This document shows positions 17,949 through 62,784 of a stretch of 64,000 bases of DNA, in pieces (position 1 is the stretch's first letter; every line of letters begins with the position of its first letter). The notes under the pieces were generated by a model. That model made no database searches. It saw nothing but the letters and a program-made list of their open reading frames with translations, and was not told the DNA's origin. The DNA comes from an uncultured Verrucomicrobiae bacterium (GTDB taxonomy: Bacteria > Verrucomicrobiota > Verrucomicrobiia > Chthoniobacterales > UBA10450). The position numbers were made by a program, and so were the translations under genes. Location: positions 24,187 through 88,186 of the forward strand of contig CAVXQL010000010.1 of the NCBI GenBank assembly GCA_963763995.1, in the 5' to 3' direction.

Positions 17949-18515
17949 ATGAGCGAAGATCTCCTCGCGTTGTTTCGCAAGACGGGAGCGTTGCTCGACG
18001 GGCATTTCGTCCTGCGCTCCGGATTGCACAGCCGCCAATTCTTCCAATGCGCAATCCTGCTCCAGCACACAGATATTGCCGCCCGGGTCTGCGGAATGCT
18101 CGCGGGCAAGATACGCGGCATCAGCTGCGACGCGGTGATTTCTCCGGCACTCGGTGGAATCATTGTCGGTCAGGAAGTGGGCCGCGCTCTTGGGAAGCGA
18201 CACATCTTTGCGGAAAAAGATGCCGGCGGCCTCGTTCTGCGGCGCGGATTCAAGATCACGCCTAACGAGACATTTGTTGTCGCTGAAGATGTGGTAACGC
18301 GCGGCGGACGTGTTCAGCAAACAATCGATATTGTACGCGAAAACGGCGGAGTGGTCGTCGCGGTAGCGGTGATCGTCGATCGCAGCGGCGGCAATCGCCC
18401 CGACTTTGGTTGTCCCTTTATCAGCTTGATCGAGATGAATGTTGAGACGTTCGCCGCGGATAGTTTACCTCCCGATCTGGCAAAGACGCCAGCGGTCAGA
18501 CCGGGAAGCAAATAG
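17949..18515 (+). CDS. pyrE: orotate phosphoribosyltransferase
   Basis: Start taken at ATG 17949 (MSEDLLALFRKTGALLDGHFVLRSGLHS). The PRPP loop is VVAEDVVTRGG. The upstream part of ORF 17781..18515 runs through the repeat. Confidence 0.9.
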   Translation: MSEDLLALFRKTGALLDGHFVLRSGLHSRQFFQCAILLQHTDIAARVCGMLAGKIRGISCDAVISPALGGIIVGQEVGRALGKRHIFAEKDAGGLVLRRGFKITPNETFVVAEDVVTRGGRVQQTIDIVRENGGVVVAVAVIVDRSGGNRPDFGCPFISLIEMNVETFAADSLPPDLAKTPAVRPGSK

Positions 18516-18540
18516 TCGCGATGCGTTGGTGAACGCTTTC

Positions 18541-18569
18541 TTGACCTGTGCAGGCGCGCCCAATAATTT
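18541..18569 (+). promoter_or_regulatory. candidate sigma-70-type promoter for sdhCAB
   Basis: TTGACC, 17-nt spacer, TAATTT; 40 nt upstream of the sdhC GTG. Confidence 0.35.
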
Positions 18570-18608
18570 CATTCATCAACCGCGCCACTGCGCGAAAATA
18601 ATTCGCCT

Positions 18609-19295
18609 GTGACTGATTTCTTCCGCTCCTCGATTGGCAAAAAGTTTGTCGTCGCGCTGACAGGCATCGTTCTGATCGCTTTCGTCATCGGTCATCTTCT
18701 CGGCAATCTGCAAATCTTCATCGGACCGGACTGGATCAATGGGTACGCCGAACATTTGCACGAGCTGGGGCCATTTCTTTGGGTGATTCGCGCCTTCCTG
18801 TTGGTCACCGTGATTCTGCATATCTACTTCACGATCCAGCTCGCGATCGAAAATCGGCGCGCGCGGCCGAAGGGCTACGTCAAAAAGGAAAACGTCAAAG
18901 CGAGTTTCGCTTCACGGCACATGGTGATGAGCGGCTTGATCGTTTTCGCGTTTATCGTTTACCATCTCGCGCATTTCACCCTGCGCGTGACCGACCCGCG
19001 TTTTGCCCTGCTCAAGAAAGATCCGCTCCATCACTACGACGTTTATTCGATGATGGTTTACGGGTTTCAGAGCTATCCCGTCTCCGGTTTCTACATCCTC
19101 GCAATGTTTTTGCTCGCGCTCCATTTGAGTCATGCTTCGTCGAGTTTCTTCCAATCGCTCGGCTTGAATGACAGGAAACTTACGCCGCAGCTCGAACGCG
19201 GCGGTCGCATTTTCGCGTGGCTGATTTTTCTCGGCTACGCCTCCATTCCCGTCGCCGTCTTGCTCGGCTGGGTGCAACCGGCACAACAGCTATGA
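18609..19295 (+). CDS. sdhC: succinate dehydrogenase/fumarate reductase cytochrome b558 subunit
   Basis: 228 aa with a GTG start, five hydrophobic helices and conserved His residues. First gene of an sdhC-A-B order as in Bacillus-type enzymes. Confidence 0.85.
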
Positions 19296-21217
19296 TCGGT
19301 CATTTGGATTCAAAGATTCCATCGGGACCGCTCGCGGGAAAATGGTCGAGTCACAAGGATCACGCCAAGCTTGTCGCGCCGAACAATCGCCGGAAATTTG
19401 AAATTATCGTGGTCGGCAGCGGTCTCGCCGGTGGATCGGCGGCGGCCACATTGGGCGAGCTTGGCTACCGAGTGAAATGCTTTTGTTATCAGGACAGTCC
19501 GCGTCGCGCCCACAGCATCGCCGCTCAGGGTGGAATCAATGCGGCCAAGAATTATCAGAACGACGGCGACAGCGTCTTTCGCCTTTTCTACGACACGATT
19601 AAAGGCGGCGATTTTCGGTCGCGCGAAGCCAACGTCTATCGTCTGGCCGAAGTCAGTAACCTGATCATCGATCAATGTGTGGAGCAGGGGGTACCGTTTG
19701 CGCGCGAATACGGCGGGCTGCTCGCAAATCGTTCCTTCGGCGGCGCACAGGTTTCACGAACATTTTATGCCCGCGGCCAAACCGGCCAGCAACTCCTTCT
19801 CGGCGCTTACCAGGCACTTTGTCGTCAGATCGCCGCCGGCACGGTGCAAATGTTTCCGCAAACTGAGATGCTCGATCTCGTCCTCGTCGACGGTCACGCC
19901 AAGGGAATCGTAACTCGCGGCCTAACGACTGGGAAAATCGAAATGCACGCCGGAGACGCGGTCGTGCTTGCCACCGGCGGATACGGCAACGTTTTTTATC
20001 TTTCGACCAACGCGCGCGGCTGCAACGTCACCGCCACGTATCGCGCTTACAAGAAGGGCGCTCTTTTCGGAAATCCCTGCTACACGCAGATTCATCCCAC
20101 CTGCATTCCTGTCTCGGGCGACTATCAGTCGAAGCTCACGCTGATGTCGGAATCGCTCCGCAATGATGGCCGGGTCTGGGTGCCGAAGAAAAGAGGGGAC
20201 AAGCGTATGCCTAACGATATCCCTGAAGGCGAGCGCGATTACTACCTGGAGAGGAAATATCCCAGCTTCGGAAATCTTGCCCCGCGCGATATTTCCTCCC
20301 GAAGCGCGAAGGAGGTTTGCGATGAAGGCCGCGGCGTCGGCGAAACAGGTCGCGGCGTTTATCTTGATTTCAAGGACGCGATCGCGCGCCTCGGCGAAGA
20401 AACGATCCGTGAACGCTACGGCAATCTATTCGAAATTTACGAGAAGATTACGAATGAAGATGCCTACAAACAGCCGATGCGGATTTATCCGGCTGTCCAT
20501 TACACGATGGGTGGCCTCTGGGTTGACTACAATTTAATGAGCAATGTCCCGGGCCTGCACGTGATCGGCGAAGCAAATTTCTCCGATCATGGCGCGAATC
20601 GATTGGGCGCAAGCGCGCTCATGCAAGGTTTGGCTGATGGATATTTCGTCCTGCCCTACACGCTGCCGATTTATCTGGCCGGTCAGATCGGCAAACGGCC
20701 GTCGACCGATCATCCCGAATTTCGCCAGGCCGAAAACGAAGTCCGCTCCCGGGTACAGAAACTCCTTAGTGTGAAAGGGACGCGCACGGTGGATTCATTT
20801 CATCGCGAGCTCGGCCATCTTCTTTGGAACAAGTGCGGAATGGCGCGAAATGCGGCTGGGTTGCGGGAAGCGTTGGCCCGCATTCCCGAACTGCGCGAGG
20901 AATTCTGGCAGAACGTGACCGTGCCGGGCGACGAGCAGGATTTCAATCAATCGCTTGAACGCGCGGGGCGGGTCGCGGATTTCCTTGAGTTCGGCGAATT
21001 GATGTGCACCGACGCGCTCGCCCGCGACGAATCGTGTGGCGGGCATTTTCGCGAAGAACATCAAACGCCGGACGGCGAAGCGTTGCGTGACGACGAAAAC
21101 TTTGCCGTTGTGTTTGCGTGGGAATATCAGGGGAACGGCCAGACAGCGGCACCGAAATTGCATCTTGAACCGCTGGAATTTGAAACCGTCGAGCTTGCGC
21201 AGAGGAGCTATAAATGA
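19292..21217 (+). CDS. sdhA: succinate dehydrogenase/fumarate reductase flavoprotein subunit
   Basis: Start taken at ATG 19292 (ATGA overlap with sdhC). Contains the FAD fold [12 protein letters not shown], the covalent-FAD His in [14 protein letters not shown], and HYTMGG. Confidence 0.95.
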
Positions 21218-23453: not shown

Positions 23454-24290
23454 TTACCCGGTTGTTTGACAGGCAAATGTCCAAATCTCCGGATCGAGCT
23501 CGTCCCGGGCGCGGGCCGCGAGAGATTGGGCGGAGTTTTCGTCGCGCAAAATCGCAAAGACAGTTGAGCCGGAACCCGAAAGCAATGCGGCGGAGACCTC
23601 CGGTTGTTTGTGCAACCACATCTTTGTCTGAGCCAGGAAAACGAATTTCTCAAAGACCGGTCGCTCAAGATCGTTAACGAGTCGGAATTCGCCAAACTGT
23701 TGCGGATCGTAGATCACTTCCGGGATCTGTTTCGAATCCTGCCAGCGGGAATAGGCCCACGGAGTCGGCACGCCGAACGATGGCTTGACGAGCAATAGAG
23801 ATAGCGTTGCGGGAAGCTTGTTCGGCTCCACGATTTCGCCGCGCCCGCGACAGATCGCAGCCGATTGAAAAAGAAAAAACGGAACGTCTGATCCAATTTC
23901 AGCCGCCAGCTCGGCAAGTTCCGGCAACGCGAGATTTGCCTGATAAAAGCGATTCAAACCACGCAAAGTTGCAGCTGCGTCACTGCTTCCGCCGCCCAGG
24001 CCGGCCCCATGAGGGATTTTTTTCCGCAGCTGAATTGTCGCGTCAATTTTTTGTCCGGTCGTGCGCGAGAAAAGCGCCGCCGCGCGGATGACCAGATTAT
24101 CGGAGCCATGCGGAAGGGAAGGATCGTCGCAGCGAAAATCGATTCCCAATGTGTGCGCCGCTCCCGTGATTGTGATTTCGTCACAGAGCGAAATCGGCGT
24201 CATCAGGGTTTCGATTTCGTGAAAGCCGTCCGGACGACGGTGGCGAATTTCAAAAGAAAGATTGATCTTCGCAGGCGCGAGAAGCTGCAT
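23454..24290 (-). CDS. ispE: 4-diphosphocytidyl-2-C-methyl-D-erythritol kinase
   Basis: Start taken at ATG 24290 (MQLLAPAKINLSFEI). The GHMP motif is IPHGAGLGGGSSDAAA. Confidence 0.92.
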   Translation of the reverse strand: MQLLAPAKINLSFEIRHRRPDGFHEIETLMTPISLCDEITITGAAHTLGIDFRCDDPSLPHGSDNLVIRAAALFSRTTGQKIDATIQLRKKIPHGAGLGGGSSDAAATLRGLNRFYQANLALPELAELAAEIGSDVPFFLFQSAAICRGRGEIVEPNKLPATLSLLLVKPSFGVPTPWAYSRWQDSKQIPEVIYDPQQFGEFRLVNDLERPVFEKFVFLAQTKMWLHKQPEVSAALLSGSGSTVFAILRDENSAQSLAARARDELDPEIWTFACQTTG

Positions 24291-24329
24291 ACAATCCAAT
24301 CTGTTCACGAATTTCCGGAGAATTACAGG

Positions 24330-25028
24330 ATGAACTCGCAACTGGCCAATCGCGATCGATTGATCGTCGCCCTCGATGTCGCGACGAAAGTGCAGGCTCT
24401 CGGTTTGGTGAAAGAGCTTTCCAGCGCTGTTTCGTGGTTCAAGATCGGCCTGCAACTCTACACCGCGCTCGGTCCAGAAATCGTTGTCGCGGTAAAAGAA
24501 ACCGGCGCGAATGTTTTTCTCGATCTCAAACTTTACGACATCCCGAATACGGTTGCCCGCGCAGTGGAAGCGGCCGGCAAATTTGATGTGCAAATGCTGA
24601 CAATTCATCTGAGTGGCGGCCACGAAATGATTGAGGCGGCGGTCTCCGCACGGAGAGACGGTATGATGCTTTTTGGCGTAACGGTGCTGACCAGCTCGAC
24701 CACAGAAACATTGCGTGAAGTCGGTGTTGATTCGCCGGTTGAAGAACAGGTTCTCCGGCTTGCTTCGTTAGGCGCAGCGGCGAAGATCGATGGTTTCGTC
24801 GCGAGCCCGCTCGAGCTCAAAGCATTGCGCGGACGCCTGGGCGACAAAGGGAAGCTGGTGGTGCCAGGCGTGCGCCCGGTCGGGTCCGAGCCGGGGGATC
24901 AAAAACGGTTTATGACTCCGCGCGAAGCGCTGCAAAGTGGTGCTGACTATCTGGTGATCGGGCGACCGATTACTTCGCATCCGCGGCCACTGGAAGCCGT
25001 GGAAAAAATAATCAGCGAACTTGCCTGA
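24330..25028 (+). CDS. pyrF: orotidine-5'-phosphate decarboxylase
   Basis: Start taken at ATG 24330. Contains LIVALDV, FLDLKLYDIPNTV and YLVIGRPI motifs. Confidence 0.93.
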   Translation: MNSQLANRDRLIVALDVATKVQALGLVKELSSAVSWFKIGLQLYTALGPEIVVAVKETGANVFLDLKLYDIPNTVARAVEAAGKFDVQMLTIHLSGGHEMIEAAVSARRDGMMLFGVTVLTSSTTETLREVGVDSPVEEQVLRLASLGAAAKIDGFVASPLELKALRGRLGDKGKLVVPGVRPVGSEPGDQKRFMTPREALQSGADYLVIGRPITSHPRPLEAVEKIISELA

Positions 25029-26957: not shown

Positions 26958-27015
26958 AAATTGTAGTCAGGCCGCGGCAACAGCAAGCACTGTAGAATTT
27001 GCTTCTTCCCTTCAA

Positions 27016-27711
27016 ATGCCTCAGCTGAAAATCCGCGAAATGCCGGAGCCGGAGCGGCCGCGGGAAAAGTTGATGGCTCACGGTGCGGCGGCGCTGACCG
27101 ATCCGGAGCTGATCGCGATCCTTTTGCGCACGGGTGTGCGCGGGGCGAATGCGATCGAAGTCGCCCGTGAACTATTGGAAAGATACAAATCGCTCGGCGA
27201 CTTGAGCAGGTGCACGGTTAAGGAGCTTGCTGCCATCCGCGGGATCGGGAACGCGAAAGCGGTGCAGTTGGTTGCTGCTTTCGGTCTTGGTCAAAGATTG
27301 GCGCAAGAGTCTTTCGTCCGAAAGAAGATTGATTCGCCCGAATTGGTCTGTGCTCTCGTCGGCTCCGAAATGCGAATGCTGCACAAGGAATCGCTCCGCA
27401 TCATTCTGCTCGATACTCGCTATCACATGCTGCGGATCGAGGAAGTTTCGCTCGGCAGCCTCAACGAAAGCATCGCGCACCCCCGCGATGTCTTTCGACC
27501 GGCCATCATTTTCTCTGCATACGCCGTCATCGTGGTGCACAATCACCCGTCGGGTGATCCATCCCCGAGCCAGGCTGATCACAGCCTAACGAGACGATTA
27601 TCGGAGGCAGCAGAGCTCTTGCAGATCAAGCTGCTCGATCACATTATCATCGGCGCGCCGGCGGAGGGACGGGCGCCGTATTTCAGTTTCAAGGAAGCGG
27701 GTGTGCTGTGA
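27016..27711 (+). CDS. radC: RadC-family JAB-domain protein (UPF0758)
   Basis: Start taken at ATG 27016 (MPQLKIREMPEPERPREKL). Contains an HhH region and the JAMM motif HNHPSGDPSPSQAD. Confidence 0.9.
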   Translation: MPQLKIREMPEPERPREKLMAHGAAALTDPELIAILLRTGVRGANAIEVARELLERYKSLGDLSRCTVKELAAIRGIGNAKAVQLVAAFGLGQRLAQESFVRKKIDSPELVCALVGSEMRMLHKESLRIILLDTRYHMLRIEEVSLGSLNESIAHPRDVFRPAIIFSAYAVIVVHNHPSGDPSPSQADHSLTRRLSEAAELLQIKLLDHIIIGAPAEGRAPYFSFKEAGVL

Positions 27712-29772: not shown

Positions 29773-30825
29773 ATGTCTCGGCTTTTCGCGCTCTGCCTGA
29801 CGATCGCGCTAGCGGCTCAACGACTGCACGCCGCGCCGCCCATCGCCGCGCCCCCACCCGGGAAATTGTATCACGGATTTTATTACGATGGACCGGCAAC
29901 GAATGAACACGATGTCACCGCGGCGGACGTGTCGCAATACGAAGAGGCCGTCGGGAAAAAGACCGCGTGGGTTTTCTTTTCCCACAACTGGTTTGAATCG
30001 AGAAAATTTCCTGCGGCAATGTGCACCTGGATTCGAGATCTCGGAAAGGTCCCGTACGTCCGCTTGATGCTGCGCTCGGACCTCGACCAGAATCATGCCG
30101 AGAAGATTTTTAGCCTCGATAACATCATCGCCGGCAAATTCGACGAAGACCTGAGGTTATGGGCGCGGGAGGCAAAAGCATTCGGTTCACCCATTTTGAT
30201 CGAGTGGGGCACGGAGCCGAACGGACAATGGTTTGCCTGGAACGGAAGATGGAACGGCGGCGCGAAGAAGGGGCCCGCGCGCTTCGTCGCAGCGTATCGC
30301 CACATCGTCGATCTGATGCGGGCGGAAGGCGCCGACAACCTGCAATGGGTCTGGCACGTCAACTGGTTCGATGAGCCGGAAGCGAAATGGAATCGCTTCG
30401 AGAATTATTATCCGGGCGACTCCTACTGCGATTGGATCGGTATCAGCGCCTACGGTCCGCTCACCCCGACAACGCGCGATGGCATCGAAGGTTTGCGCTT
30501 CGAGATGCGCGAAGCCTACCCACGCCTCGTAAAGCTGGCGCCGGGCAAGCCGATCATCGTGGCCGAGTTCGGTTGCGATCTGCACAATCATCGCGTTCGC
30601 GCCGACGAGTGGGCAAAGTCGGCGCTCGACGACTTGTTCTCAGGACGCTGGCCGGCCGTGATCGGTTTCTGCTGGTGGAACGAAGCGTGGGAAAACGACG
30701 ATCATAAAATGCACGATACTGACATGAACATCCTGCATGACGCAGCCCTAACGAATGTATTTCGGAGCGAATTCGAGCGGCACGCGGATAAGATTCAGGA
30801 AACGCCAATTCTGGCTCTCCATTAG
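29773..30825 (+). CDS. secreted glycoside hydrolase, GH26-like (mannanase-like)
   Basis: 350 aa with a signal peptide MSRLFALCLTIALAAQRLHA. Contains ILIEWGTEPNGQWFAWNG and WVWHVNW motifs reminiscent of GH26. Confidence 0.55.
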   Translation: MSRLFALCLTIALAAQRLHAAPPIAAPPPGKLYHGFYYDGPATNEHDVTAADVSQYEEAVGKKTAWVFFSHNWFESRKFPAAMCTWIRDLGKVPYVRLMLRSDLDQNHAEKIFSLDNIIAGKFDEDLRLWAREAKAFGSPILIEWGTEPNGQWFAWNGRWNGGAKKGPARFVAAYRHIVDLMRAEGADNLQWVWHVNWFDEPEAKWNRFENYYPGDSYCDWIGISAYGPLTPTTRDGIEGLRFEMREAYPRLVKLAPGKPIIVAEFGCDLHNHRVRADEWAKSALDDLFSGRWPAVIGFCWWNEAWENDDHKMHDTDMNILHDAALTNVFRSEFERHADKIQETPILALH

Positions 30826-31287: not shown

Positions 31288-31374
31288 TGGGTTGGCCGGC
31301 GACGCGCCTGCCCTAACGACAACAAGTCGCGCAGTTCGCGATTTGTTCGGGGCAGCGTCCGCTTGTCGTATTTC

Positions 31375-33371: not shown

Positions 33372-33459
33372 GCAGCGCCTACTATCGGCGCGATTGATTA
33401 AATAATTCTTGAGCGCGCAAGCGCAAGCGGCTATTGCTCGCGGCAGTTCTTTGCGAGTT

Positions 33460-33645
33460 TGATCAGTGGATCGGCGCGAGAAATCCCGTGTGAATCGGGA
33501 GCAGTTGCGCTGCTGTAACTGGATACGACTTCCCATGAGCCAATCGTTTCCCGAAAGCATTCGGGATCGGTGAAGGCGGGAAGAAGGTGCGCGTGAGTCG
33601 TTAGGCGAACGCCAGAAGCCAGGAGCCAGAATATTTGCCCGCTCC
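33460..33645 (+). promoter_or_regulatory. cobalamin (B12) riboswitch
   Basis: AGAAAUCCCGUGUGAAUCGGGAGCAGUUGCGCUGCUGUAAC closely parallels the E. coli btuB leader core GGGAAUCCAGUGCGAAUCUGGAGCUGACGCGCAGCGGUAAG. A B12-box-like GAAGCCAGGAGCC..UUGCC lies at 33615-33640. The element sits upstream of a BtuB-like receptor. Boundaries are approximate. Confidence 0.7.
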
Positions 33646-33773
33646 ACCTCATTCGAGTCGCCGCGTGTGCGGACGACCCGAAAAAACTTCTTCGCGAAAA
33701 AGAAGAATGAGAGCTGTGGACGATCTGGTGCAACCGGCCAAGTCCGCCTCTCTGTAAATGGAGGAAACTTGTT

Positions 33774-35669
33774 ATGCGGCAGATCAATATTAGAAGGTTG
33801 GTGACGGTGTGCATTGCTGGAGCGCTGCTCGCGCTTTCTTTTCCTGCTCACGCGCAGGATGCGGCTTCATCCGAGATCTCGAGCGAAAGTGAACCGATCG
33901 TGGTGAGCGCGACTCGACTTCCCATCCCGGAAGATGAATCGCCTTCGAGCGTGAGCGTGATCACGGATGAAATTATCGAGCAAAAACAAATTCGGCGCGT
34001 GGCGGACGCGTTACGGGAAGTTCCCGGATTGTCGGTCGTGGAAACTGGGACGGCGGGACAGCAGACCTCGGTCTTCATCCGCGGTTTGCGTAGCGAGCAC
34101 ACGCAGGTTTTGATCGACGGGATTCCGATCAACCAGGGACTTCAGGGAGCCTTTAACTTTGCCGACTTAACCACCGACAACATCGCTCGGATCGAGGTTG
34201 TTCGCGGACCGCAGAGCACTTTATACGGTCCACGCGCGCTGGCAGGGGTGATTCAGATCTTTACCAAGCAGGGCAGCGGGCCACCGACAGGCGAGTTCAG
34301 CGCGGAAGCTGGATCGTTCGACACGTTTCGCGAAACCTTCCAGAGCTCGGGCTCGGTTCGGCAGTTCGATTATTCCGTCGGACTGAGCCGCCTCGATACG
34401 GATTATGAACGGCCGAACAATCAGTATCGCCTGAGCAACGGCCTCGTGAACATCGGCTGGACGCCTAACGAACAATGGAGAATCAGCGGCTTGTTTGCCT
34501 ATTCGCTCGCTGACGCTGGGAATCCGAATTCGATCTTCGATCCGAAGCCATTCGATAATCTTTTGACCGAACGCTGGCTGGTCGCTCCACGGGTTGATTT
34601 CAAGCCGGTCGATTGGTGGGACCACCAGTTGATCGTCAGCTACGATCACGAACGGCAGGTGAACGATCCGAACGACGACGGTTTCGTCGGCCCGACGCGC
34701 GCGCTGTTCAAACGCTTGACCGTCGACTATCAAAACGATCTCAAAGCGGCATCGTGGCTCACGCTGACCTCGGGGTTTTTCTATAGTGATGTCGACGCGG
34801 GCCAGGAACGGCCATTCGTTTCACAGGACTTCGGGCCGCAGCCGACCTTCGTCAGCGATCACACGGAAGAGACCGCGGTATTCCTGCAGGCGAGCATCAC
34901 GCCATGTGAAGGTTTGTTGCTCGTAGCCGGTGGACGCTACGATTATTTCAATCAATTCGGCGGCATCTGGACTTATCGCATCGCCGGAAGTTACAGAATC
35001 AAACCGACGGACACGATCTTGCATTCGAGCATTGCGACTGGCTTCAGTCCGCCCAGCAGTCAGGATAAGATCTTCGGCAACAACTTTGGCCTGGAGCCGG
35101 AAAAAGATCGCGGGTTTGACGTGGGAATTGAACAGCACTTTTGGGGAGGGCGAGGCTTCGTTGGCCTGACGTATTTTCACAACGACTTGTCGAACCTGAT
35201 CGGCTATAACGGGCTCTTCGACACCTTGAATCTGGGCGCCGCGTTGACGCAGGGACTGGAAAGCGAGATGCAGATTCGACCGATGCCCGATCTCAGTTTC
35301 TCGGCGACGTACACATACCTCGATGCGGAGAAAACGTCGGCGGTAGACATTAATCAACCACAGGGCGCGCGATTGCCGCGCCGGCCGCGCAATGAGTTTT
35401 ATGTTTCGGCATCATACCTGTGGTGCAAAAAATTGCGGACGACTGTGGAAGCAAAATTTGTCAATGCGCGGGAGGAGCTGAGTTTCGGCGCCCCGAACTT
35501 CGATATTGAGGATTACTCTTTTGTGAATTTCGCGGCCGAATACGAAATCAATCCCCACCTCACGATCTTTGGTCGGATCGACAACGTGACGAATGAGCAG
35601 TACGCCGAGGTGTTTGGTTTCCCGGCGTTGGGGCGGGGCGCGTATGCAGGAGTGAAGGTGCGGTTCTAG
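33774..35669 (+). CDS. btuB: TonB-dependent outer-membrane receptor, BtuB-like
   Basis: 631 aa with a signal peptide, a TonB box (EPIVVSATR), a plug domain (VPGLSVVETGTAGQQTSVFIRGL) and a C-terminal beta-barrel ending in ..GVKVRF. Confidence 0.88.
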   Translation: MRQINIRRLVTVCIAGALLALSFPAHAQDAASSEISSESEPIVVSATRLPIPEDESPSSVSVITDEIIEQKQIRRVADALREVPGLSVVETGTAGQQTSVFIRGLRSEHTQVLIDGIPINQGLQGAFNFADLTTDNIARIEVVRGPQSTLYGPRALAGVIQIFTKQGSGPPTGEFSAEAGSFDTFRETFQSSGSVRQFDYSVGLSRLDTDYERPNNQYRLSNGLVNIGWTPNEQWRISGLFAYSLADAGNPNSIFDPKPFDNLLTERWLVAPRVDFKPVDWWDHQLIVSYDHERQVNDPNDDGFVGPTRALFKRLTVDYQNDLKAASWLTLTSGFFYSDVDAGQERPFVSQDFGPQPTFVSDHTEETAVFLQASITPCEGLLLVAGGRYDYFNQFGGIWTYRIAGSYRIKPTDTILHSSIATGFSPPSSQDKIFGNNFGLEPEKDRGFDVGIEQHFWGGRGFVGLTYFHNDLSNLIGYNGLFDTLNLGAALTQGLESEMQIRPMPDLSFSATYTYLDAEKTSAVDINQPQGARLPRRPRNEFYVSASYLWCKKLRTTVEAKFVNAREELSFGAPNFDIEDYSFVNFAAEYEINPHLTIFGRIDNVTNEQYAEVFGFPALGRGAYAGVKVRF

Positions 35670-35857: not shown

Positions 35858-37074
35858 GTGCGCCCGGAACTTTATCTCGCGGTTGGTTTTATCGTTGGTG
35901 TGGCGTTAGGCGCTTGCGTTTTCCTGCTCTCACGCCGTCGTCGTTCCGGCGAAGCAGAACTCATTCAGCGTTTGGAACTACTCGATCGCGCGCAAGAGAG
36001 AGCCGAGCGCATGTTGCGAGAAGAAATGTCGCGCGGCCGGGAAGAAAACGCGCAATCGGCCAAGACACAGCGCGACGAACTTACTTCCTCGCTGGAGAGC
36101 GTCCGTTCGATTGTCGATCTGCGCCTGAAACAATTGCAGGAAGACAATTCCCGACAGATCGAAAAAATGCGCGCGACGGTTGACGAGAAATTGCAAGGCA
36201 CACTGGAGAAGAGGCTGACGGAATCGTTCAAGCTCGTGAGCGAGAGGCTCGAGCAGGTGCACCGGGGACTCGGCGCCATGCAGCAACTGGCGAGCGATGT
36301 CGGTGGATTGCAGCGTGTCCTGACGAATGTGAAGACGCGTGGCGGCTGGGGCGAAGTCCAGCTGGGTGCGCTCCTCGGGCAAATCCTAACGACAGACCAA
36401 TTCGCGTGCAATGTAAGGACGCGTGATGAGAGTGGGGAGACGGTAGAATTCGCAATCAAATTGCCGGGCGATGAAAACGGTGCGCCGGTTTGGCTTCCGA
36501 TCGACGCAAAATTCCCGATCGAAGATTATCATCGACTAATCGCGGCGCAGGAGATTGCGGACGTGCCGGCGGTGGATGCTGCGATGCGCAGCCTGGAAAC
36601 GCAGTTGAAAAAATGCGCGAAAGATATTTGCGCGAAGTACATCAACCCGCCGAAGACGACGGACTTCGCCCTCATGTTTCTGCCGACGGAAGGACTTTAT
36701 GCCGAAGCTGATGCGCCGCGTTGGCCTGGTCGAGCAGGTGCAGCGCGATTGCCGGGTGGTGTTTGCTGGGCCGACGACACTGGCGGCGTTGCTCAACAGC
36801 TTGCAAATGGGATTTCGCACTCTCGCCATTCAAAATCGTTCTAGCGAAGTCTGGAATTTGCTAGCGCGCGGTGAAAAATGAGTTCGGGAAATTCGGCGAT
36901 GCCTTGTCGAAAGTAAAACATAAACTCGATCAGGCATCGAGCGACATGGACAAAGTTGCTAAACATTCTCAAAGAATCACAAAAAGCCTGAACGACGTGG
37001 AGGAACTGCCTACGAATCCGCAGCCACTGTTGCCGGAGTTACTAGCGGAGCCGGAAGAAGAAGAACCAGATTAG
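35858..37074 (+). pseudogene. rmuC: DNA recombination protein RmuC, split over three frames by two +1 shifts (about 36707 and 36866)
   Basis: Frame A (35858-): TM plus coiled coil ...FLPTEGLYAE. Frame B (ORF 36699..36881): LMRRVGLVEQVQRDCRVVFAGPTTLAALLNSLQMGFRTLAIQNRSSEVWNLLA. Frame C (36871..37074): VKNEFGKFGDALSKVKHKLDQ... Joined, the three parts give a colinear RmuC. Confidence 0.85.
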
Positions 37075-37648: not shown

Positions 37649-39703
37649 TTACGGCCGCGGTGCGAGCGAGGCGACAATTTGATCGAAGCGCGGATCCCCT
37701 CGCAACGGATCCCAAAACGGATCAAGCCGGATTTCGCCGTAGGACACGCCGGCCGGCATCTTGGCGAGAATTTTGAGTTGCTCGATCGCCAGGTTGCGCT
37801 CACCGATCCACGCGCAGATCACCGCATAGTAATAAAGAATCTCCGTGCCGTTGAGCGCGTCTTTCGTTACCGGTAGAAGCTTGATTGCCCGGCGCGCCTT
37901 GTCGAGCGCCTCTTCTTTTCGTCCGAGCGAAGCATCGATCAACCCGAGGAAGCAGAGCTCGGAGCCGTCGTTAGGGTCGGACTGGACGAGTTTCTCCTGC
38001 TGCGAGCGCGCGTTCTCAAATGCGGCGCGGGCACCGGCTGCGTCTCCTTTCATCCGGGCAACCAACCCTTGCGCGTAGGCTCGGTTGAACTCGACCGCGC
38101 CTATGCTTCTTCCGCGCAACGTACTCTCGACCAGTGTTCCCAGGACTTGATCGGCGGCGACGGGATCACGCCGGTACAAATCGACAAAGAAACGCCCGCG
38201 TGCCAAATCTCCCGCTGACGCGGGGTCGTCCGCGAGAATCTTTTCGAGAGCGGCGCGCCATGATCGCGTGTCAGCTTGTTCATGGAAATCGATCCAACCG
38301 GGAAGCAGAAGGGTGTAGTTGTTCTTTGATTCAAGGGTTAGGCCACGAGCGGCTACCTCTCTGGCTTGTTTATATTCGCGCGAACAAAGAAAAGTGAATC
38401 CAGCGCCGAAAAGGAGATCACGGTTTCGCGGATCCAACTCCATCGCGCGCATGAAGTCGTGCCCGGCTTCCGACCAACGCCCCTGTCTTCGATCAATGTA
38501 GCCGCGCCATTCGAAGATGCGTGCATTGTTTGGCATCGTGCGGACGGCAATGGCAAGCTCATCCCGGGCGTGGTCGTAATCGAGGTAGCCGTAATATAAG
38601 TGCACCGCCAGGGCGAGATGTGCTTCGCCCGAATCTGGTTTCAATCGGAAAGCCGAATTGATCGCAGCGTTGGCCAGGGCCAGGCGCTCGGGCGTGTGAT
38701 CGATGTCGTTCCAATAGATCTCGTCGTGGGCCTCCGCCAACTCGCAATATGCCAGAAGAAAGGCCGGGTCCCGGGCGATCGCCTGGTTGAGCAATTCCAC
38801 AGCTTGGAAAAGGTTTTTCGCGCTGTTGAGGCCGTAGTATGAGGCCTCATCGACCCAGGACCTGGCGTGAACATAGAAGTCGTAGGCGACAATGTCCTTG
38901 GTTGGTCGCTCTTCAATGGCTGCTCTTTCGCTAAGCGAGAGCTTCGCCTGAAGCTGATCGGCGATAGCCTTGGCAATCTCGCTTTGAATGGCGAATACAT
39001 CGGCGAGGTCACGGTCGTAACTCTGCGCCCACAGTTGCGTGTCGGTTCTGGCATCAATCAATTCTGCGTTCACTCGCACCTTTCCGTCGGCGCGTTGGAC
39101 ACGACCTTCCAGCAGATACGTTACGCCGAGTTGTTTTCCGATCTCGCGCAGATTCCGAGCAATCCCGCTTTTGTACTGCATCACGCTCGTATGGCTTATC
39201 ACTTTCAAGTCTGCGATCTTGGCGAGATCGGTCAGAATTTCGTTCTGCACCCCGTCGGCAAAATATGCGTTCTCTTGGTTCGCACTGAGGTTTTCGAATG
39301 GCAGCACCGCGATGCTTTTGTCTGGAACCGAGGGCGCACTGGGAGAAACAATCGGATGAATTCGCTCGAAAATCAGAATCGCGACGACGACGAGCAGGAC
39401 ACCGATAATCAGAAAATCGAGCTTGCGACCGGTCCGGCGGGTGATGGCCTCGTTAGGCGCGATCTGTTCGGTGCGCTTGATTCCTTCGGGGGTCATTTCG
39501 AATATCCAGGAGAAAATCAGCGCTATCGGAAAACCGATTGCTGACAGGAGAACAACAAGCCGAACCGCCCAATTGGGGATGTCGAAGAACGGAAAGACCT
39601 GGCTCGCAATTTGTATGAGCAGCCATGCGACAACGCCGTAGGCCATCGCAACCCTGTAAACGTTGCGCCGCCTTAGCTCGGCCAAGAAGTTATTCAGACG
39701 CAC
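37649..39703 (-). CDS. membrane-anchored TolB-N-like plus TPR-repeat protein
   Basis: 684 aa. N-terminal RRNVYRVAMAYGVVAWLLIQIA helix, SIAVLPFENLS...FADGVQNEILTDLAKI module, then multiple TPR repeats. Confidence 0.75.
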   Translation of the reverse strand: MRLNNFLAELRRRNVYRVAMAYGVVAWLLIQIASQVFPFFDIPNWAVRLVVLLSAIGFPIALIFSWIFEMTPEGIKRTEQIAPNEAITRRTGRKLDFLIIGVLLVVVAILIFERIHPIVSPSAPSVPDKSIAVLPFENLSANQENAYFADGVQNEILTDLAKIADLKVISHTSVMQYKSGIARNLREIGKQLGVTYLLEGRVQRADGKVRVNAELIDARTDTQLWAQSYDRDLADVFAIQSEIAKAIADQLQAKLSLSERAAIEERPTKDIVAYDFYVHARSWVDEASYYGLNSAKNLFQAVELLNQAIARDPAFLLAYCELAEAHDEIYWNDIDHTPERLALANAAINSAFRLKPDSGEAHLALAVHLYYGYLDYDHARDELAIAVRTMPNNARIFEWRGYIDRRQGRWSEAGHDFMRAMELDPRNRDLLFGAGFTFLCSREYKQAREVAARGLTLESKNNYTLLLPGWIDFHEQADTRSWRAALEKILADDPASAGDLARGRFFVDLYRRDPVAADQVLGTLVESTLRGRSIGAVEFNRAYAQGLVARMKGDAAGARAAFENARSQQEKLVQSDPNDGSELCFLGLIDASLGRKEEALDKARRAIKLLPVTKDALNGTEILYYYAVICAWIGERNLAIEQLKILAKMPAGVSYGEIRLDPFWDPLRGDPRFDQIVASLAPRP

Positions 39704-49958: not shown

Positions 49959-50113
49959 GGCCACGCTTTTTGCAGAACGAAGGAGGTCCCACGGTCGTTC
50001 AAAACGCAAGGTTTGACGCGGCTCTGGGACTTTTAGGTCTCTGGCAGAAAGCAACCGGTTCGTCGTTAGGCTCCATGACGGAGGCGCGGCGAGCAATGAA
50101 ATGACGAAAAGCG

Positions 50114-50189
<76 letters not shown>

Positions 50190-52961: not shown

Positions 52962-53462
52962 GTGCCCGTTCTCCCTCCAGACGAAGAGACCAGGATAATT
53001 GTTCGCGAACGATTGCGGTTGTTAACGATCGGGTTCTACGTGCGCGGCGGAATGATAGCGGCCTTCAGTTGTTTTTTCCTGCTTTACGTTTTCCTGTTCC
53101 TTGGCGTTTCCTTCATGCCAGAGTCGGCGTGGAACCCTCCTCCCGCTCCAGGAACATCACCAACACCATTTGCCACTTTGTCGCCAGCACTTCATTCTTC
53201 GAAACCGGAAACACCGCCGATGATCATCTTCCGAATCATGGCTGGTATTATGGGTGGAATGGTATTGCTAGGTTGGACGTTGGCGGCTTTTACTGCGTAC
53301 GCTGGCCGGTGCATTCAGAGGCGTAAATCCAAAGTCCTGATATACGTGATGGCGGCGGCAAACTGCGTGTTCATCCCCTACGGAACCCTTCTCGGCGTGT
53401 TCACGTTCATTGTCCTCGGATCGCCTGCCGCGGCCGAGGAGTTCAAGCCAACGGGCCGTTAG
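52962..53462 (+). CDS. hypothetical four-TM membrane protein
   Basis: 166 aa with a GTG start and hydrophobic helices plus a Pro-rich loop. The reading frame is supported only by length and hydropathy. Confidence 0.45.
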   Translation: MPVLPPDEETRIIVRERLRLLTIGFYVRGGMIAAFSCFFLLYVFLFLGVSFMPESAWNPPPAPGTSPTPFATLSPALHSSKPETPPMIIFRIMAGIMGGMVLLGWTLAAFTAYAGRCIQRRKSKVLIYVMAAANCVFIPYGTLLGVFTFIVLGSPAAAEEFKPTGR

Positions 53463-53468
53463 ACGCGA

Positions 53469-55161: not shown

Positions 55162-55292
55162 AACGACAACTTCGATCGGCTGCGAGTCTTGCGAACGATC
55201 ATAGTTCGGCAAAGCAAAATCGAATTTCTGGACATCTTCGTTTCCAAGCCGCAAACCTTGCTTTGCAAAGAACAAATTCTTATACCGATCGG

Positions 55293-56680: not shown

Positions 56681-56761
56681 ACGCGCCCTCACCGCTCCAA
56701 TCGCGGGAGAAAATACTAAATCAGGAGAGTCTTTGCCGGCTCGTTGGAACTGAAATTATTC

Positions 56762-57463
56762 ATGCAAAAAAATCGTAGTAAACGTTATCGCGCCGCCGCC
56801 GAACAGGTGGACCGGAGCAAGACCTATAATCTACCGGAAGCGGTTTCGACATTGAAGAAACTGCCGCCAACGAAGTTCGATCAGACCGTCACCATGGCGT
56901 TTCGGTTAGGCGTCGATCCGAAGCAATCCGATCAGATGGTACGAGGCACCTGCCCTCTTCCTCACGGCAGCGGGAAAGCCGTGCGCGTGCTGGTTTTTGC
57001 GGAAGGCCAGGCGGCGAAGGCGGCGAAGGATGCTGGTGCGGAATTTGTTGGCTTCAAGGACATGGTTCAAAAATGCCAGGAAGGCTTTCAGGATTTCGAT
57101 GTCGCGATTGCGACGCCGGCGGCGATGGCGGAAGTCCGCAAACTCGGCAAGGTGCTTGGTCCACGCGGCCTGATGCCGAATCCGAAGACCGGCACGGTGA
57201 CTGACGATACCGCGAAAGCGGTAGGGGAAGTGAAGGCAGGTCGAGTGGAATTCAAGCTCGACAAGAACGGCAACGTGGCGGTGCCGGTGGGAAAATTTTC
57301 ATTCGACGAAAAAGCTTTGGTGGAAAACGGGACGGCCGTGATCGAAGCGGTGGTTCGCGCTCGTCCGGCGACCGCCAAGGGGAAATTTGTGGAAGGGATG
57401 ACGCTGAGCGCGACGATGTCGCCTGGCCTGCACCTCGATCCTTCGCCGTATCTCACCACGTAG
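56762..57463 (+). CDS. rplA: 50S ribosomal protein L1
   Basis: Start taken at ATG 56762 ([17 protein letters not shown]). Contains [25 protein letters not shown]. Confidence 0.97.
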
Positions 57464-57499
57464 CGGTCTCAACTTAACAACACGTAACTTTCTTCCATC

Positions 57500-58276: not shown

Positions 58277-58663
58277 ATGGCAGATACAAATGCAATTGTG
58301 GAGCAACTCAGCGGCCTGACCGTTCTCGAGGTTGCCGGTCTGGTGAAGCAACTCGAAGAGAAGTGGGGCGTGAGCGCAGCGGCGCCAGTCGCCATGGCTG
58401 CGCCCGCGGCAGGCGGCGGCGGTGCGGCGGCAGCTCCCGCGGAAGAGAAAACGACTTTCGAAGTCATTCTGAAAGAAATGGGCGCGAACAAAATCGGCGT
58501 GATCAAGGAAGTGCGCGGCGCAGTGCCGGGTCTTGGCCTGGCCGAGGCGAAAGCGCTTGTCGAAGGCGCGCCAAAGACTCTGAAGGAAGGCGTGACCAAG
58601 GCCGAAGCCGAAGAGATCAAGAAGAAGATCGAAGCGGCCGGCGCGAAAGTCGAAATCAAGTAG
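58277..58663 (+). CDS. rplL: 50S ribosomal protein L7/L12
   Basis: Start taken at ATG 58277 ([32 protein letters not shown]), followed by an Ala/Gly hinge and the C-terminal domain. Confidence 0.97.
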
Positions 58664-58989
58664 ATCCAATTTTGATGGAGGGGCACTCCCGGATCGTCCA
58701 CTTAACCAGTGGGTGAACGCGATCGGACGTGTCCCTTCATCAAGAAAGAATTTGCGCGGCGGCGGATTCTCTTTATCATTCTTTTTCGTTAGAAGTAGTC
58801 AGCCTTATTTTTAACCCTTCACTCGACGGCAGAAGCACAAATCGGCAACAGAACAGCGGAGGTCAATTTGACAGCCTGCTGTTTTGCTGTCATTTTTGCG
58901 CCCCTCGCTTTCGGTTAACGCCGTAAATCCTGCACCCCCGCGGTCCCCGTCCGCGATTCGGCGAACGGTGCAACTATTGGTTAGTAATT

Positions 58990-61900
58990 ATGTCAGAACG
59001 TATCTACTTCGGAACCATTAAAGAGGGAATTGAGCCTCCCAACCTGATCGAGGTTCAACTTAATTCCTACGTCGATTTCCTGCAAAAGGATGTTCCGTTT
59101 TCCAAGCGGAAAATGACCGGTTTGCAGGCCGTCTTTAAGGAAGTTTTTCCGATCGAGAGTTACGACGAAAAGGCAACCCTTGATTTCAGCCACTATGAGA
59201 TCGGCGAACCAAAGCTGAGCGCGCTCGAAGCGCAGCGCGAAGGCCAAACTTTTAGCGCGCCACTGCACGTCACCTTTCAACTCCGCGAAGAAAAGGGGAC
59301 AAAGGAGGAAAAAGTTTACATGGGCGAGATCCCGCTCATGACGCCGCAGGGCACGTTCGTGATCAATGGCGCCGAGCGCGTCGTCGTTAGCCAATTGCAT
59401 CGGTCGCCGGGAATCGCGTTCGAGTCGAGCATTCACTTGAACGGGAAAGTCCTCTACAGTTTCCGCATTATCCCGGATCGCGGTTCCTGGATCGAAGTGC
59501 AGTTCGATACCAGCGATCTCCTGTATATTTATCTCGATCGCCGCAAACGCCGTCGCAAATTTCTCGCCACCACTTTCCTCCGCGCTCTCGGATACGGCCC
59601 GGATGAAGATGTCATCAAACTTTTTTACACAATCGAGAAGCTGAAGCTGAGTGAGAAGCTGGAAGAGGAAGCGCTTGCGACCAAGGTTTTGATCGCGGAT
59701 GTGCTCGACGGCGAAGTGACCGTTGCGCGTGCCTTCGAGCCGCTGACGCTGGCGACCGTTCGCCAGATCATGGCTCTCGGCGTTCATGACGTGCAGGTGA
59801 TCGATATTTCCAACGACGACTCTGTCGTCAAGGCGTTGAAAAAGGATCCCGCGCATGATCAGGAAGAAGCGCTCAAAGATATTTACCGGAAGCTGCGGCC
59901 CGGCGACCCCCCGACGGTGGCGAATGCCCGCGCATTGCTGAAGCGCCTCTTCTTTGATCCGAAAAAATACGATCTTGGCCGCGTCGGTCGCTACAAGCTC
60001 AATCAGAAGCTCGGGATCGATGTCGACCTCGCCGAACGCATTCTGACGGATAAGGACTTCATCGCCGCGATCAAGTACCTGATCAACCTGCGCCGCGGTG
60101 AGGGGACGCTCGATGACATCGACCATTTGGGCAGCCGTCGCGTCCGAACGGTTGGCGAGTTGCTCGCGAATCAGTGCCGCGTCGGGCTCGCGAGGACGGA
60201 GCGTTTGGTGAAGGAGCGCATGACGCTGTTCGACGTCAACATCGACGGCATGACACCGCAGAAGTTAATCAACCCCAAGGCGCTGAGCGCAGTGGTTCGA
60301 GATTTCTTTGGCCGGTCGCAACTTTCGCAATTCATGGATCAAACCAATCCGCTCGCGGAACTGACGCACAAACGGCGTCTTTCCGCCCTCGGACCCGGCG
60401 GTTTGAGCCGCGATCGCGCCGGCTTCGAAGTACGCGACGTTCATCCATCTCACTACGGGCGCATTTGCCCGATCGAAACGCCGGAAGGCCCGAACATCGG
60501 GCTCATTAGTTCGATGAGCACGTTTGCGCGGATCAATGAGTTTGGCTTCATTGAAACGCCATATCGTAAGGTGGAAAAAGGCCGCGTCACTGATCAGATC
60601 GATTATTTGACCGGAGATCGCGAAGAGAATTTTCTGGTCGCGCAAGCGAACGCACCAATGGACGCGAAAGGCCATTTCACGGGCGAGAAAGTTTCCGTTC
60701 GGTATCGCGGCGACTTCCTCGAAGTCGAACCTTCAAAAGTCCACTACATGGATGTGTCGCCGAAGCAGTTGGTTTCGGTGGCGGCTGGTCTGATTCCGTT
60801 CCTCGAGCACGATGACGCTAATCGCGCGCTGATGGGTTCAAACATGCAGCGGCAGGGCGTTCCATTGATTGTTTCGGAATCGCCTCTCGTCGGAACCGGT
60901 CTGGAAGGCAAGGTTGCGCGCGATTCACACGCCGTCGTTTTGGCAACCGAAAGCGGCAAAGTTGCTTCAGTAACGGCGGACCAGATCGTGGTCACAAAAG
61001 ACGGCCACATGCCCGAAGGGCGCAAGAAGTTGAAGACCGATCATGAAGCCGGCGTGCAGGTTTATGAGATGCGGAAATTCATGCGCTCGAATGCGGGTAC
61101 CTGCGTGAATCAAAAACCGATCGTGAAGAAAGGGCAGCACGTGAAGAAAGGGCAAGTCATCGCCGACGGCCCAAATACCGACCAGGGTGAGCTCGCACTT
61201 GGTCGCAACGTCCTCGTCGCATTCATGCCGTGGAACGGCTACAACTTCGAAGATGCGATCATGATCTCGGAGAAGGTCGTGAAGGAGGACATCTACACCT
61301 CCATTCACATTGACGAATTCGAAATCGGAGCTCGAGACACGAAACTGGGTCCGGAAGAAATCACGCGCGATATTCCCAATGTCAGCGAGGAAGCGTTGCG
61401 TAATTTGGGACCTGATGGCGTGGTGCGGGTGGGCGCCGAAGTGAAGCCAGGCGATATTCTTGTCGGCAAAATTACGCCGAAGAGCGAGACGGAGCTGGCG
61501 CCGGAAGAACGATTGCTCCGCGCGATTTTCGGCGAAAAGGCGGCGGACGTGAAAGACACTTCGCTGACGGTTCCTTCCGGGACCTACGGCATCGTTATGG
61601 ACGTGAAAGTTTCGTCGCGTCGCGAAGTTGCACGCGAAAAGCTCACGCCCACGGAAACGAAGCGTCAGCTCAAATCGATTACGGAAGAGCATCGGAAGAA
61701 AAAAGACGAGTTGACCGAGCAATTGACGGATTCGCTTTCGAACATCCTTCTCGGCGAAAAAATTCCGCTCGATGTCGTCAACGCCGAAACGGGGGAAATC
61801 ATTATTCCTGCCAATCGCAAGATCACGAAGACGCTGCTGCGCAAACTCGCGAACGTTTACGATCACATCGAAATCGATCCGAGCCCGATCCGAAACAAGA

Positions 61901-62784
61901 TTCGCGAGATCATTGCGTCCTACGAACACAAATTTGCCGAGCTCGAACTCGATCGAGAGCGTTCGATGGATCGCGTTGAAAGCGGCGATGACATCGATCC
62001 CGGCATCATCAAGCAGGTTAAAGTTTTCATCGCCAGCAAACGCAAGCTCAGCGTTGGCGACAAGATGGCCGGCCGCCACGGGAACAAGGGCGTTGTCGCC
62101 CGAATCGTGCCGGAAGAAGACATGCCGTTTCTGGCGGACGGAACACCGGTCGAGATCGTGCTCAATCCGCTCGGAGTGCCGAGCCGTATGAACGTCGGTC
62201 AGGTGCTCGAAACGCACCTGGGCGTCGCTGCCAAAGCGCTCGGCTTCAAAGTTGCCACTCCCGTGTTCGACGGAATCGCTGAACCCAAAATCCGTGAGTA
62301 TTTGAACGACGCGAAAAAAGTCGATGGTTTTACCTGGGTGCAGGAAACCGGCAAGGCGAAACTGAATGACGGGCGCACCGGCGATCCGTTCGATCAGGAA
62401 GTCGTCGTTGGCTATATCTACATGATGAAGCTCGGCCACTTGGTCGCGGACAAGATCCATGCCCGTGCGGTTGGTCCGTACTCGCTCGTCACGCAGCAAC
62501 CGCTCGGCGGCAAGGCGCAATACGGCGGCCAGCGCTTCGGCGAAATGGAAGTGTGGGCCCTCGAAGCCTACGGCGCGGCTTACACTTTGCAGGAATTGCT
62601 GACCGTGAAATCCGACGATGTGCAAGGGCGGACGCGGATCTACGAATCCATCGTCAAGGGCGATAACTCGCTCGAGGCGGGGACACCCGAATCTTTCAAT
62701 GTGTTGATCAAGGAAATGCAGTCGTTAGGCCTCGACGTCAAAGTCGGCGGTCAGGCGCCAGCATTCCTTGAGAGCGTAGCTTAA
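58990..62784 (+). CDS. rpoB: DNA-directed RNA polymerase subunit beta
   Basis: 1264 aa containing [26 protein letters not shown] and [13 protein letters not shown] motifs. Confidence 0.99.

Follow-up and report, generated by a model that had tools for sequence, protein, structure and literature searches.

A nine-base word resembling a DNA uptake sequence in the Chthoniobacterales (Verrucomicrobiota)

The stretch of DNA analysed here, referred to as the window (64 kb of contig CAVXQL010000010.1, from an uncultured Verrucomicrobiae bacterium), carries a short word, TCGTTAGGC with the core TCGTTAGG, which is strongly over-represented, is written independently of orientation and reading frame, and recurs with a patchy distribution among relatives. 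We consider the chances about even that TCGTTAGGC, as a word specific to its lineage, acts in the manner of a DNA uptake sequence and is spread by biased uptake and recombination. The window is an ordinary piece of the chromosome of a bacterium of the order Chthoniobacterales (phylum Verrucomicrobiota), to which it was assigned by RpoB comparison; the nearest genomes are metagenome-assembled genomes (MAGs) from soil with 93-95% RpoB identity. Among its genes are prs, rplY, pth, rpsF, ssb, dprA, topA, secA, sdhAB, pyrF, lipB, ispB, radC, lpxA, rmuC, tuf, a ribosomal protein cluster and rpoB. The cumulative GC skew climbs over the entire window, which therefore probably lies on one replichore as a whole.

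An earlier note on this DNA had drawn attention to 14 copies of TCGTTAGG (read as CCTAACGA on the opposite strand), and all of them proved to be exact in sequence, position and strand, with six on the plus and eight on the minus strand, or one copy per 4.6 kb. One hundred dinucleotide-preserving shuffles of the window give an expectation of 0.79 copies and a maximum of four, and under both Markov-1 and Markov-3 models TCGTTAGG ranks first among the 8-mers of the window for over-representation (z ~12-13). A recount agreed with the note that ten of the 14 copies extend to the 9-mer TCGTTAGGC and that 24 GTTAGG hexamers are present, 14 of them with TC in front; the near-synonymous TCGTTCGG, said to be scarce, occurs three times versus 6.5 expected. 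The check that the note had named for its claim was a codon-preserving shuffle. Synonymous-codon shuffles, done within genes or pooled over genes with the proteins and the codon usage kept, yielded 0.92 +/- 0.92 genic copies with a maximum of 4-5 in 500 shuffles, versus 12 observed in the window, and two further comparisons of this kind gave 18 observed copies versus 0.5 expected and 26 versus 1.2. Together with the recoding of orthologs into rare codons and the retention of the word at orthologous sites, both described below, these shuffles bear out the note's contention that the DNA word itself, rather than the encoded residues, is selected or driven.

The same word is found in relatives, whose loci are denoted by L numbers. 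In a carrier set of 232 kb from 17 loci, TCGTTAGGC is present in 114 copies versus 1.8 expected, TCGTTAGGG in 33 copies versus 0.9, and the commonest single-mismatch form, TTGTTAGGC, in 15 copies versus 1.0; the 245 kb of other relatives that served as a comparison set contain no copy of TCGTTAGGC, and 56 loci of other phyla, 1.04 Mb in total, contain eight. In the genes of the group, TCGTTAGGC exceeds chance by 15 to 60 times. Among the rpoB loci (24 kb), L001 (95% RpoB identity) has 21 copies in 23.8 kb, and L002 (95%) and L003 (93%) have none. In the lpxA region, sampled in metagenomic and MAG contigs, the copy number is 28 in 20.8 kb of L087, 14 in 13 kb of L093, seven each in L088 (2.75 kb), L091 (4.6 kb) and L120 (2.5 kb), five in 2.4 kb of L086, and 8-11 in each of L161, L162, L164 and L165 (20.8 kb each), while the dprA region of two relatives holds four and eight copies per 21 kb. 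With relatives at 0.4 to 2.5 copies per kb, the density of the window, which had been likened to that of Chi in Escherichia coli, turns out to be peculiar to the window genome. The logo of 161 distinct copies is a sharp 9-mer, TCGTTAGG(C>G), and there is no information in the flanks beyond these nine bases, as the note had supposed from the window alone. Copies on the two strands number 6/8 in the window, 8/13 in L001 and 15/13 in L087; for the relatives, these figures describe the balance between strands and not orientation relative to replication. The option of a Chi or FtsK-orienting word, also raised in the note, finds no strand skew to lean on, either in the window with its steadily rising cumulative GC skew or in the relatives. 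The carriers stem from separate projects and sources (MFD, JGI metagenomes, GenBank whole-genome shotgun entries, ENA and Logan) and from different sequencing platforms, and the word is therefore not an assembly artefact.

The placement of the copies was assessed in a pooled set of 147. Coding copies occur in the contexts S-L-G (TCG TTA GGn; 39 copies), x-V-R (nTC GTT AGG; 21 copies), P-N-D/E (CCT AAC GAn; 30 copies) and x-L-T-x (nnC CTA ACG Ann; 25 copies), and not one of the 147 copies lies in a stop-containing frame. Within the window, the phases are CCT-AAC-GA five times, C-CTA-ACG-A four times and TCG-TTA-GG twice, spread over nine genes, just as the note had them; its three non-coding copies are two or three, depending on whether the copy at 33598 lies in a real N-terminal extension. 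Overall, 78% of the pooled copies are coding, and 22% fall into the 11% of the DNA that is intergenic, which amounts to about twice the coding density. A preference for CCTAACGA on the sense strand does exist in the window (9 of 11 genic copies) and disappears on pooling, where 55 copies have CCTAACGA and 60 have TCGTTAGG on the sense strand. Both this preference and the Chi-like density are local fluctuations and not properties of the word.

The codons that the word needs are the rarest in these genomes (per 1000 codons: TTA 4.7, CTA 3.5, AGG 2.3 and CCT 5.0), which is in line with the uncommonness ascribed to TTA, CTA and CCT in the note. Codon-aligned tables of orthologs reveal that copies are made by substitutions alone and never by insertions or deletions. 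At the C-terminus of RpoB, TCG TTA GGC of the window and of L001 corresponds to TCG TTG GGC, AGC CTC GGT or TCG CTC GGC in relatives; a V-R pair in RpoC is encoded by GTT AGG in L001 and by GTG CGC, GTG CGT, GTG CGG or GTT CGC in four relatives, so that up to three synonymous changes towards the word are found in one step. Some copies come at the cost of a mild residue change (P-A-E to P-N-E, F-V-A to F-V-R, I/V to T). Few copies sit in the highly conserved and highly expressed rpoB, rpoC and ribosomal protein genes, and this holds for the dense genome L001 too.

Synonymous sites are near saturation in these comparisons: where two genomes encode the same residue, the fraction of identical codons is 0.45-0.50 if one of them is the window genome, and 0.52-0.61 if both are closer relatives. 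Retention of the word was scored in cells of genome by site, for which another genome has the word and the tested genome encodes the same residues. The exact word is held in 44 of 78 such cells versus 1.1 expected from codon usage, a count that is inflated by shared ancestry and for which ordinary codon retention would yield roughly 15. The copies also turn over. Those in pyrF and at 19921 in sdhA are found in the window only, and conversely the window is missing two copies that each of the five closer relatives has, one in sdhC and one in a gene with a Cu-oxidase_4 domain (labelled yfiH; 28512-29177 in the window); gain and loss are ongoing. In a rough tree built from IspB, RadC and LpxA, the carriers fall into two clades, the window's clade with 0.2-0.5 copies per kb and a second one with 0.7-2.5, separated by a clade almost without the word. 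The word would thus be old, given that the proteins compared differ by ~40% between the two carrier clades, and it seems to have been lost repeatedly. No comparable over-represented word was found in L002, L004 or L015. The sister genome L003 (CATPAW010000139.1, 1-22550, a Chthoniobacterales MAG) lacks TCGTTAGG and has an unrelated word, AAGATCGACAAT, instead: its core GATCGACA is present in 20 copies in 22.5 kb, ten per strand, with the extended consensus (A/T)(A/G)GATCGACAAT and unconserved flanks, and its copies in rpoC arise through synonymous recoding as well. The copies in the window are compiled in Table 1.

Table 1. Copies of the word, its one-mismatch forms and dprA in the 64-kb window
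Feature	Position	Strand	Gene or region	Reading and state in relatives
One-mismatch copy	2226		word-free 1-18 kb	
dprA	6814..7914	+	directly after ssb (6236-6688)	possible link to the word, drawn from context
One-mismatch copy	9072		word-free 1-18 kb	
One-mismatch copy	11075		word-free 1-18 kb	
One-mismatch copy TTGTTAGGC	14775..14783	+	secA (antisense)	orthologous to a perfect copy in L168; may be a decayed site or a precursor
Word copy (TCGTTAGGC)	18261..18268	-	phosphoribosyltransferase-domain gene 17781-18515 (+)	CCT AAC GAg (P-N-E); perfect copy at the orthologous position in L168
Word copy	19921..19928	-	sdhA 19217-21217 (+)	GGC CTA ACG ACT (G-L-T-T); unique to the window; five relatives encode S-L-I/V-T, and the word arrived with an I/V to T replacement
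Word copy	20210..20217	-	sdhA	CCT AAC GAT (P-N-D); exact word also in L161, L164, L165, L167
Word copy	24765..24772	+	pyrF 24009-25028 (+)	TCG TTA GGC (S-L-G); unique to the window; relatives encode R/K/N/T/G-L-G, Leu mostly CTC or TTG
Word copy	27585..27592	-	radC 26854-27711 (+)	AGC CTA ACG AGA (S-L-T-R); exact word common to L082, L083, L087, L091, L092, L161, L162, L164, L165; remaining relatives have the same residues via CTG/CTC ACC/ACG
Word copy (TCGTTAGGG)	30747..30754	-	GH26-like gene 29773-30825 (+)	x-L-T frame
Word copy (TCGTTAGGG)	31312..31319	-	intergenic, between convergent osmC-like (30880-31287 +) and deoxyhypusine-synthase-like (31375-32421 -) genes	not part of a hairpin
Word copy	33598..33605	+	5' extension of epimerase reading frame 32430-33851 (-), upstream of its Pfam domain	coding in the P-N-D/E frame, or else intergenic, in the divergent region ahead of the TonB-receptor gene
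Word copy	34464..34471	-	TonB-dependent receptor gene 33774-35669 (+)	P-N-D/E frame
Word copy (TCGTTAGGA)	36385..36392	-	rmuC 35858-36844 (+)	x-L-T frame
Word copy (TCGTTAGGG)	37968..37975	+	TPR/FlgO-domain gene 37649-39703 (-)	sense strand CCT AAC GA
Word copy	39450..39457	+	TPR/FlgO-domain gene 37649-39703 (-), second copy	sense strand CCT AAC GA
Word copy	50063..50070	+	intergenic, 44 nt upstream of tRNA-Thr (50114-50189)	L002 aligns with GCGAGACG
Word copy	62722..62729	+	C-terminus of rpoB 58990-62784 (+)	TCG TTA GGC (S-L-G); identical word in L001; L002 TCGTTGGG, L003 AGCCTCGG, L004 TCGCTCGG, with the same residues in other codons

The uptake-sequence-like reading, one of several options listed in the earlier note, fits these data best, because TCGTTAGGC is a bare asymmetric 9-mer that reaches 1-2.5 copies per kb independently of orientation and frame, because its copies are written against codon usage, and at times against protein sequence, and are relatively enriched in unconstrained DNA, and because perfect copies stand far above near-copies in a word that is restricted to certain lineages, with loss and replacement in others. 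This combination of properties defines the uptake sequences of the Pasteurellaceae and Neisseriaceae, in which biased uptake and homologous recombination act as a molecular drive. By analogy, a surface DNA receptor of the Chthoniobacterales competence machinery would favour word-bearing fragments, which would be imported and integrated by recombination at a higher rate, the incoming single strand being handled by DprA and RecA. Mutations that create or perfect a copy would then be over-transmitted in the population, and the word would build up where proteins tolerate it, i.e., in intergenic DNA, at synonymous positions (even in the rarest codons) and at tolerant residues. Strongly constrained or highly expressed genes would resist it, mutation (mostly of TCG to TTG) would erode existing copies, and lineages in which the specificity of the receptor is lost or swapped would end up without the word or with a different one. 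That uptake bias drives the word, and that such a receptor reads it, we infer from this analogy. Since the family is defined by preferential uptake and the present evidence is that of sequences, we describe the word as uptake-sequence-like and do not file it as a family member.

Several observations weigh against the uptake-sequence-like reading. The copies in the window are significantly clustered, as the earlier note had pointed out (12 of the 14 within 18-40 kb; scan-statistic p ~0.0017), and a simple uptake drive does not predict clustering. The close relatives L002, L084 and L094 are devoid of any such word, and the distribution is patchier than in the Neisseriaceae or Pasteurellaceae. 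Of the genes for a competence machinery (type IV pilus, ComEA, ComEC and DprA), dprA alone was seen in the DNA stretches at hand, which do not amount to whole genomes and do not include comEC, comEA or pilQ, and searching the literature brought up no account of natural competence in the Verrucomicrobia. The anatomy also departs from the established cases: the word is not accompanied by the phased AT-rich flanks found in Haemophilus, it does not form the inverted pairs that serve as terminators in Neisseria, and the alternative word of L003 is wholly unrelated to it, whereas the dialects of the neisserial DNA uptake sequence (DUS) are one or two bases apart.

With regard to the uneven spread, the word-free 1-18 kb of the window are syntenic with L168 at 83-87% identity and contain four copies with one mismatch, all belonging to the two decay types seen most often. 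A foreign island was considered for this region and rejected, as it holds prs, rplY, pth, rpsF, ssb, dprA, topA and secA in addition to the synteny with L168. At the other end, 50-64 kb correspond to the highly expressed tuf-rpoB cluster, which is word-poor even in dense genomes. A relative represented by ERZ25039533:contig_10428 has equal densities in both regions, with eight and eight copies. Judged from these comparisons, the window genome is a sparse, partly eroded carrier, a low-density member of its clade with patchy retention, and its patchiness may be due to chance, local erosion or imported tracts.

The topA gene of the window (7969-10746) is the one clear candidate for an allele replacement. 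Its product of 925 amino acids is 48-50% identical to the TopA proteins of L168 and L169 (829-832 amino acids), and its neighbours DprA and SecA share 97% and 96% identity with those of L168; nucleotide similarity between the window and L168 ends at ~8504 and restarts at 10758. It looks as if homologous recombination in the flanking DNA had exchanged the topA allele. In its present form, topA of the window contains no perfect copy of the word and one single-mismatch copy (9072), and topA of L168 and L169 contain one and two perfect copies, respectively.

Alternatively, a sequence-specific drive of a kind not yet known that operates inside cells, without uptake, could write the word, either by templated short-patch conversion of near-matches or as a self-marking that is read by a repair or defence nuclease; a specificity module that is swapped or lost would then give TCGTTAGGC in some lineages, AAGATCGACAAT in one, and no word elsewhere. 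We regard this reading as a tentative possibility. The main rival among known kinds invokes a word of the HIP1 type that is kept by sequence-specific modification or repair (a methyltransferase, or a nuclease with short-patch repair or gene conversion), such that near-cognate sites are converted to the exact word, or exact copies are shielded from mutation, within each cell line and with no DNA uptake involved. Such a system would account for about one copy per kb in genes, for conservation beyond the codon level, for the excess of perfect over one-mismatch copies, and for unrelated sister words; the patchy phylogeny would follow from the quick exchange and loss of modification specificity genes. 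However, the word is not palindromic, its nine specified bases exceed the usual length of a methyltransferase site, and its commonest one-mismatch form, TTGTTAGGC, is the very C-to-T product that a T:G-correcting repair should remove; nor was a modification or repair system of that kind identified in the 64-kb window. This explanation is unlikely in our judgement. A further rival, to which we give still less credence, is a recombination or self-recognition signal for a nuclease-helicase or a defence system, Chi-like yet independent of orientation, which marks DNA as self and attenuates its degradation. RecBCD and AddAB are known to have short words that differ between species, and the present word likewise is strongly over-represented in core genes, lineage-specific and absent from unrelated genomes. 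Against this idea, the copies show no strand bias, neither in the window, where the GC skew is uniformly positive, nor in the relatives; the 60-fold excess and the density, which reaches 2.5 copies per kb, are far above those of Chi words; and selection on each of thousands of copies would be too weak to preserve rare codons unless a drive assisted it. A weak scan of viral contigs for direct 9-mer pairs turned up none with dispersed copies; it returned tandem repeats and chance pairs only and is uninformative on the phages of this clade.

The uneven spread within the window would also suit binding sites for an abundant chromosome-organising protein of the nucleoid-associated, SMC-loading or occlusion type, and a sharp asymmetric motif of this length could be read by a DNA-binding domain. 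Yet the relatives are word-dense at every locus sampled (the rpoB, lpxA and dprA regions), known systems of this kind use tens to hundreds of sites rather than thousands, and close relatives manage without the word, all of which makes such a role very improbable. Trivial explanations are already refuted. Several carriers are nanopore MAGs (MFD bins), and L167 possesses a repeat of the repetitive extragenic palindrome (REP) type, AATGTGGGAG(G/C)G(A/G)CCTTAGTG, that yields an abundant word from inverted and tandem intergenic clusters (4163-4248, 6865-7251 and 17142-17205); this palindromic repeat belongs to another class than the 9-mer and was taken out of the word comparison. Miscalls at a methylated motif were rejected, since the copies encode conserved residues (S-L-G in RpoB, V-R in RpoC) in assemblies of several unrelated projects and platforms; a longer repeat or mobile element was rejected on the basis of the logo without conserved flanks and of ortholog alignments free of indels, a by-product of amino-acid or codon usage on the basis of the synonymous-codon shuffles, and a function of the sense strand at the RNA level on the basis of the pooled sense counts.

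The dprA gene lies in the order rpsF-ssb-dprA-topA. DprA is a recombination mediator for incoming single-stranded DNA, and it is unusually conserved across the Chthoniobacterales (more than 120 protein clusters at 84-97% identity), level with Prs and RpsF and above LpxA, RplY, Pth and SSB in the same genome pair. Since dprA is also common in bacteria without known competence, this conservation is weak evidence for transformation. In the word-bearing L169, a few kb upstream of prs-ssb-dprA, a protein of 299 amino acids (3339-4238) has a weak match to a prepilin-type N-terminal methylation domain (PF07963). Elsewhere in the window, non-ribosomal genes occupy 52962-56636 between rplK (52498-52923) and rplA (56744-57463), among them an amidohydrolase gene and, on the minus strand, a DUF885 fragment; this arrangement recurs in L003, and in L001 the homologous segment is located downstream of rpoC.

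Two other words of the window are recorded here. AGCAGGTGC(A)/GCACCTGCT is its second most over-represented word, with eight copies versus 0.3-0.7 expected (e.g., 4000, 6003, 27205, 36252 and 36733 on the plus and 325, 1291 and 23266 on the minus strand). The core GCAGGTG has a moderate frequency across many Verrucomicrobia loci, with a lean towards the rpoB-sense strand (~66 vs 34 in the window and L001-L016); a Chi-like or orienting role is one option, a mere coding-strand effect another. GTAGGCTTCG occurs five times (14515, 30511, 40298, 54313 and 62563) versus ~0.1 expected, with unconserved flanks; at least two of its copies fall on conserved coding positions at which relatives without further copies have it too (rpoB of L002 and L004; secA of L168), and its excess may be a coincidence of conserved residues.

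Our literature search found no prior description of the word, of uptake sequences in Verrucomicrobia or Udaeobacter, or of matching words of the DUS type or of the uptake signal sequence (USS) type. To our knowledge, sequence-specific uptake words are established in only two families of Proteobacteria, which serve as models for the evolution of such words. If the uptake-sequence-like reading is true, the word would represent a third, independent case, in another phylum and in uncultured soil bacteria, and it would imply natural transformation with self-preference in soil Verrucomicrobia. Dense, sparse, word-free and alternative-word lineages, found side by side, would then offer a natural experiment in the birth, decay and replacement of a word, and the word itself would be a simple tag by which metagenomic contigs could be assigned to these lineages and foreign DNA recognised in their genomes. 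Should the word have another cause than uptake, it would point to a process, not yet known, that overrides codon usage, and even protein sequence, in writing a 9-mer thousands of times.

Among the known classes of dispersed sequences, the NTS/dRS3 repeats (cut by Ssn nucleases), REP elements and miniature inverted-repeat transposable elements (MITEs) resemble the word in having hundreds of copies per genome, but they are palindromic, 20-30 bp or longer and almost never genic, whereas the present word is a bare 9-mer that is 78% genic; REP, MITE and NTS are hence excluded by anatomy, and the repeat of L167 illustrates what the REP class looks like in this clade. NTS repeats modulate transformation, and 2% of them lie inside genes (PMC11893778). 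Chi, the FtsK-orienting polar sequences (KOPS) and the architecture-imparting sequences (AIMS) share with the word that they are species-specific, over-represented 5-8-mers in core genes; they differ from it in being strongly co-oriented with replication at a few-fold excess, while the present word is unbiased at ~60-fold. Chi and KOPS are disfavoured because of this lack of strand bias and the size of the excess. HIP1 (GCGATCGC) of cyanobacteria is a palindromic octamer that contains a methylation site. Like the present word, it is hyper-abundant in genes beyond codon expectation and patchy in distribution, with a function that is not settled; TCGTTAGGC, however, is asymmetric, not its own reverse complement, and has no known link to a methyltransferase.

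The DUS of the Neisseriaceae, GCCGTCTGAA with its dialects, is read by the minor pilin ComP. It shares with the present word its hyper-abundance, its independence of orientation, its variation between related lineages and its occurrence in both coding and non-coding DNA. DUS are found in thousands of copies, often within coding sequences (PMC11893778). A difference is that no ComP-like receptor candidate for the present word was identified in the DNA at hand. The USS of the Pasteurellaceae has a 9-bp core, AAGTGCGGT or ACAAGCGGT, and the densities of USS and DUS are like the 0.9-2.5 copies per kb of the dense relatives. The present word differs from the USS in belonging to another phylum, in that some close relatives are without it or have an unrelated one, and in its density of only one copy per 4.6 kb in the window. 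In common with the USS, it has an asymmetric 9-bp core at about one copy per kb, in either orientation, mostly genic and in several frames; it imposes particular tripeptides and codon choices, its one-mismatch copies are much rarer than perfect ones, and it is restricted to certain lineages.

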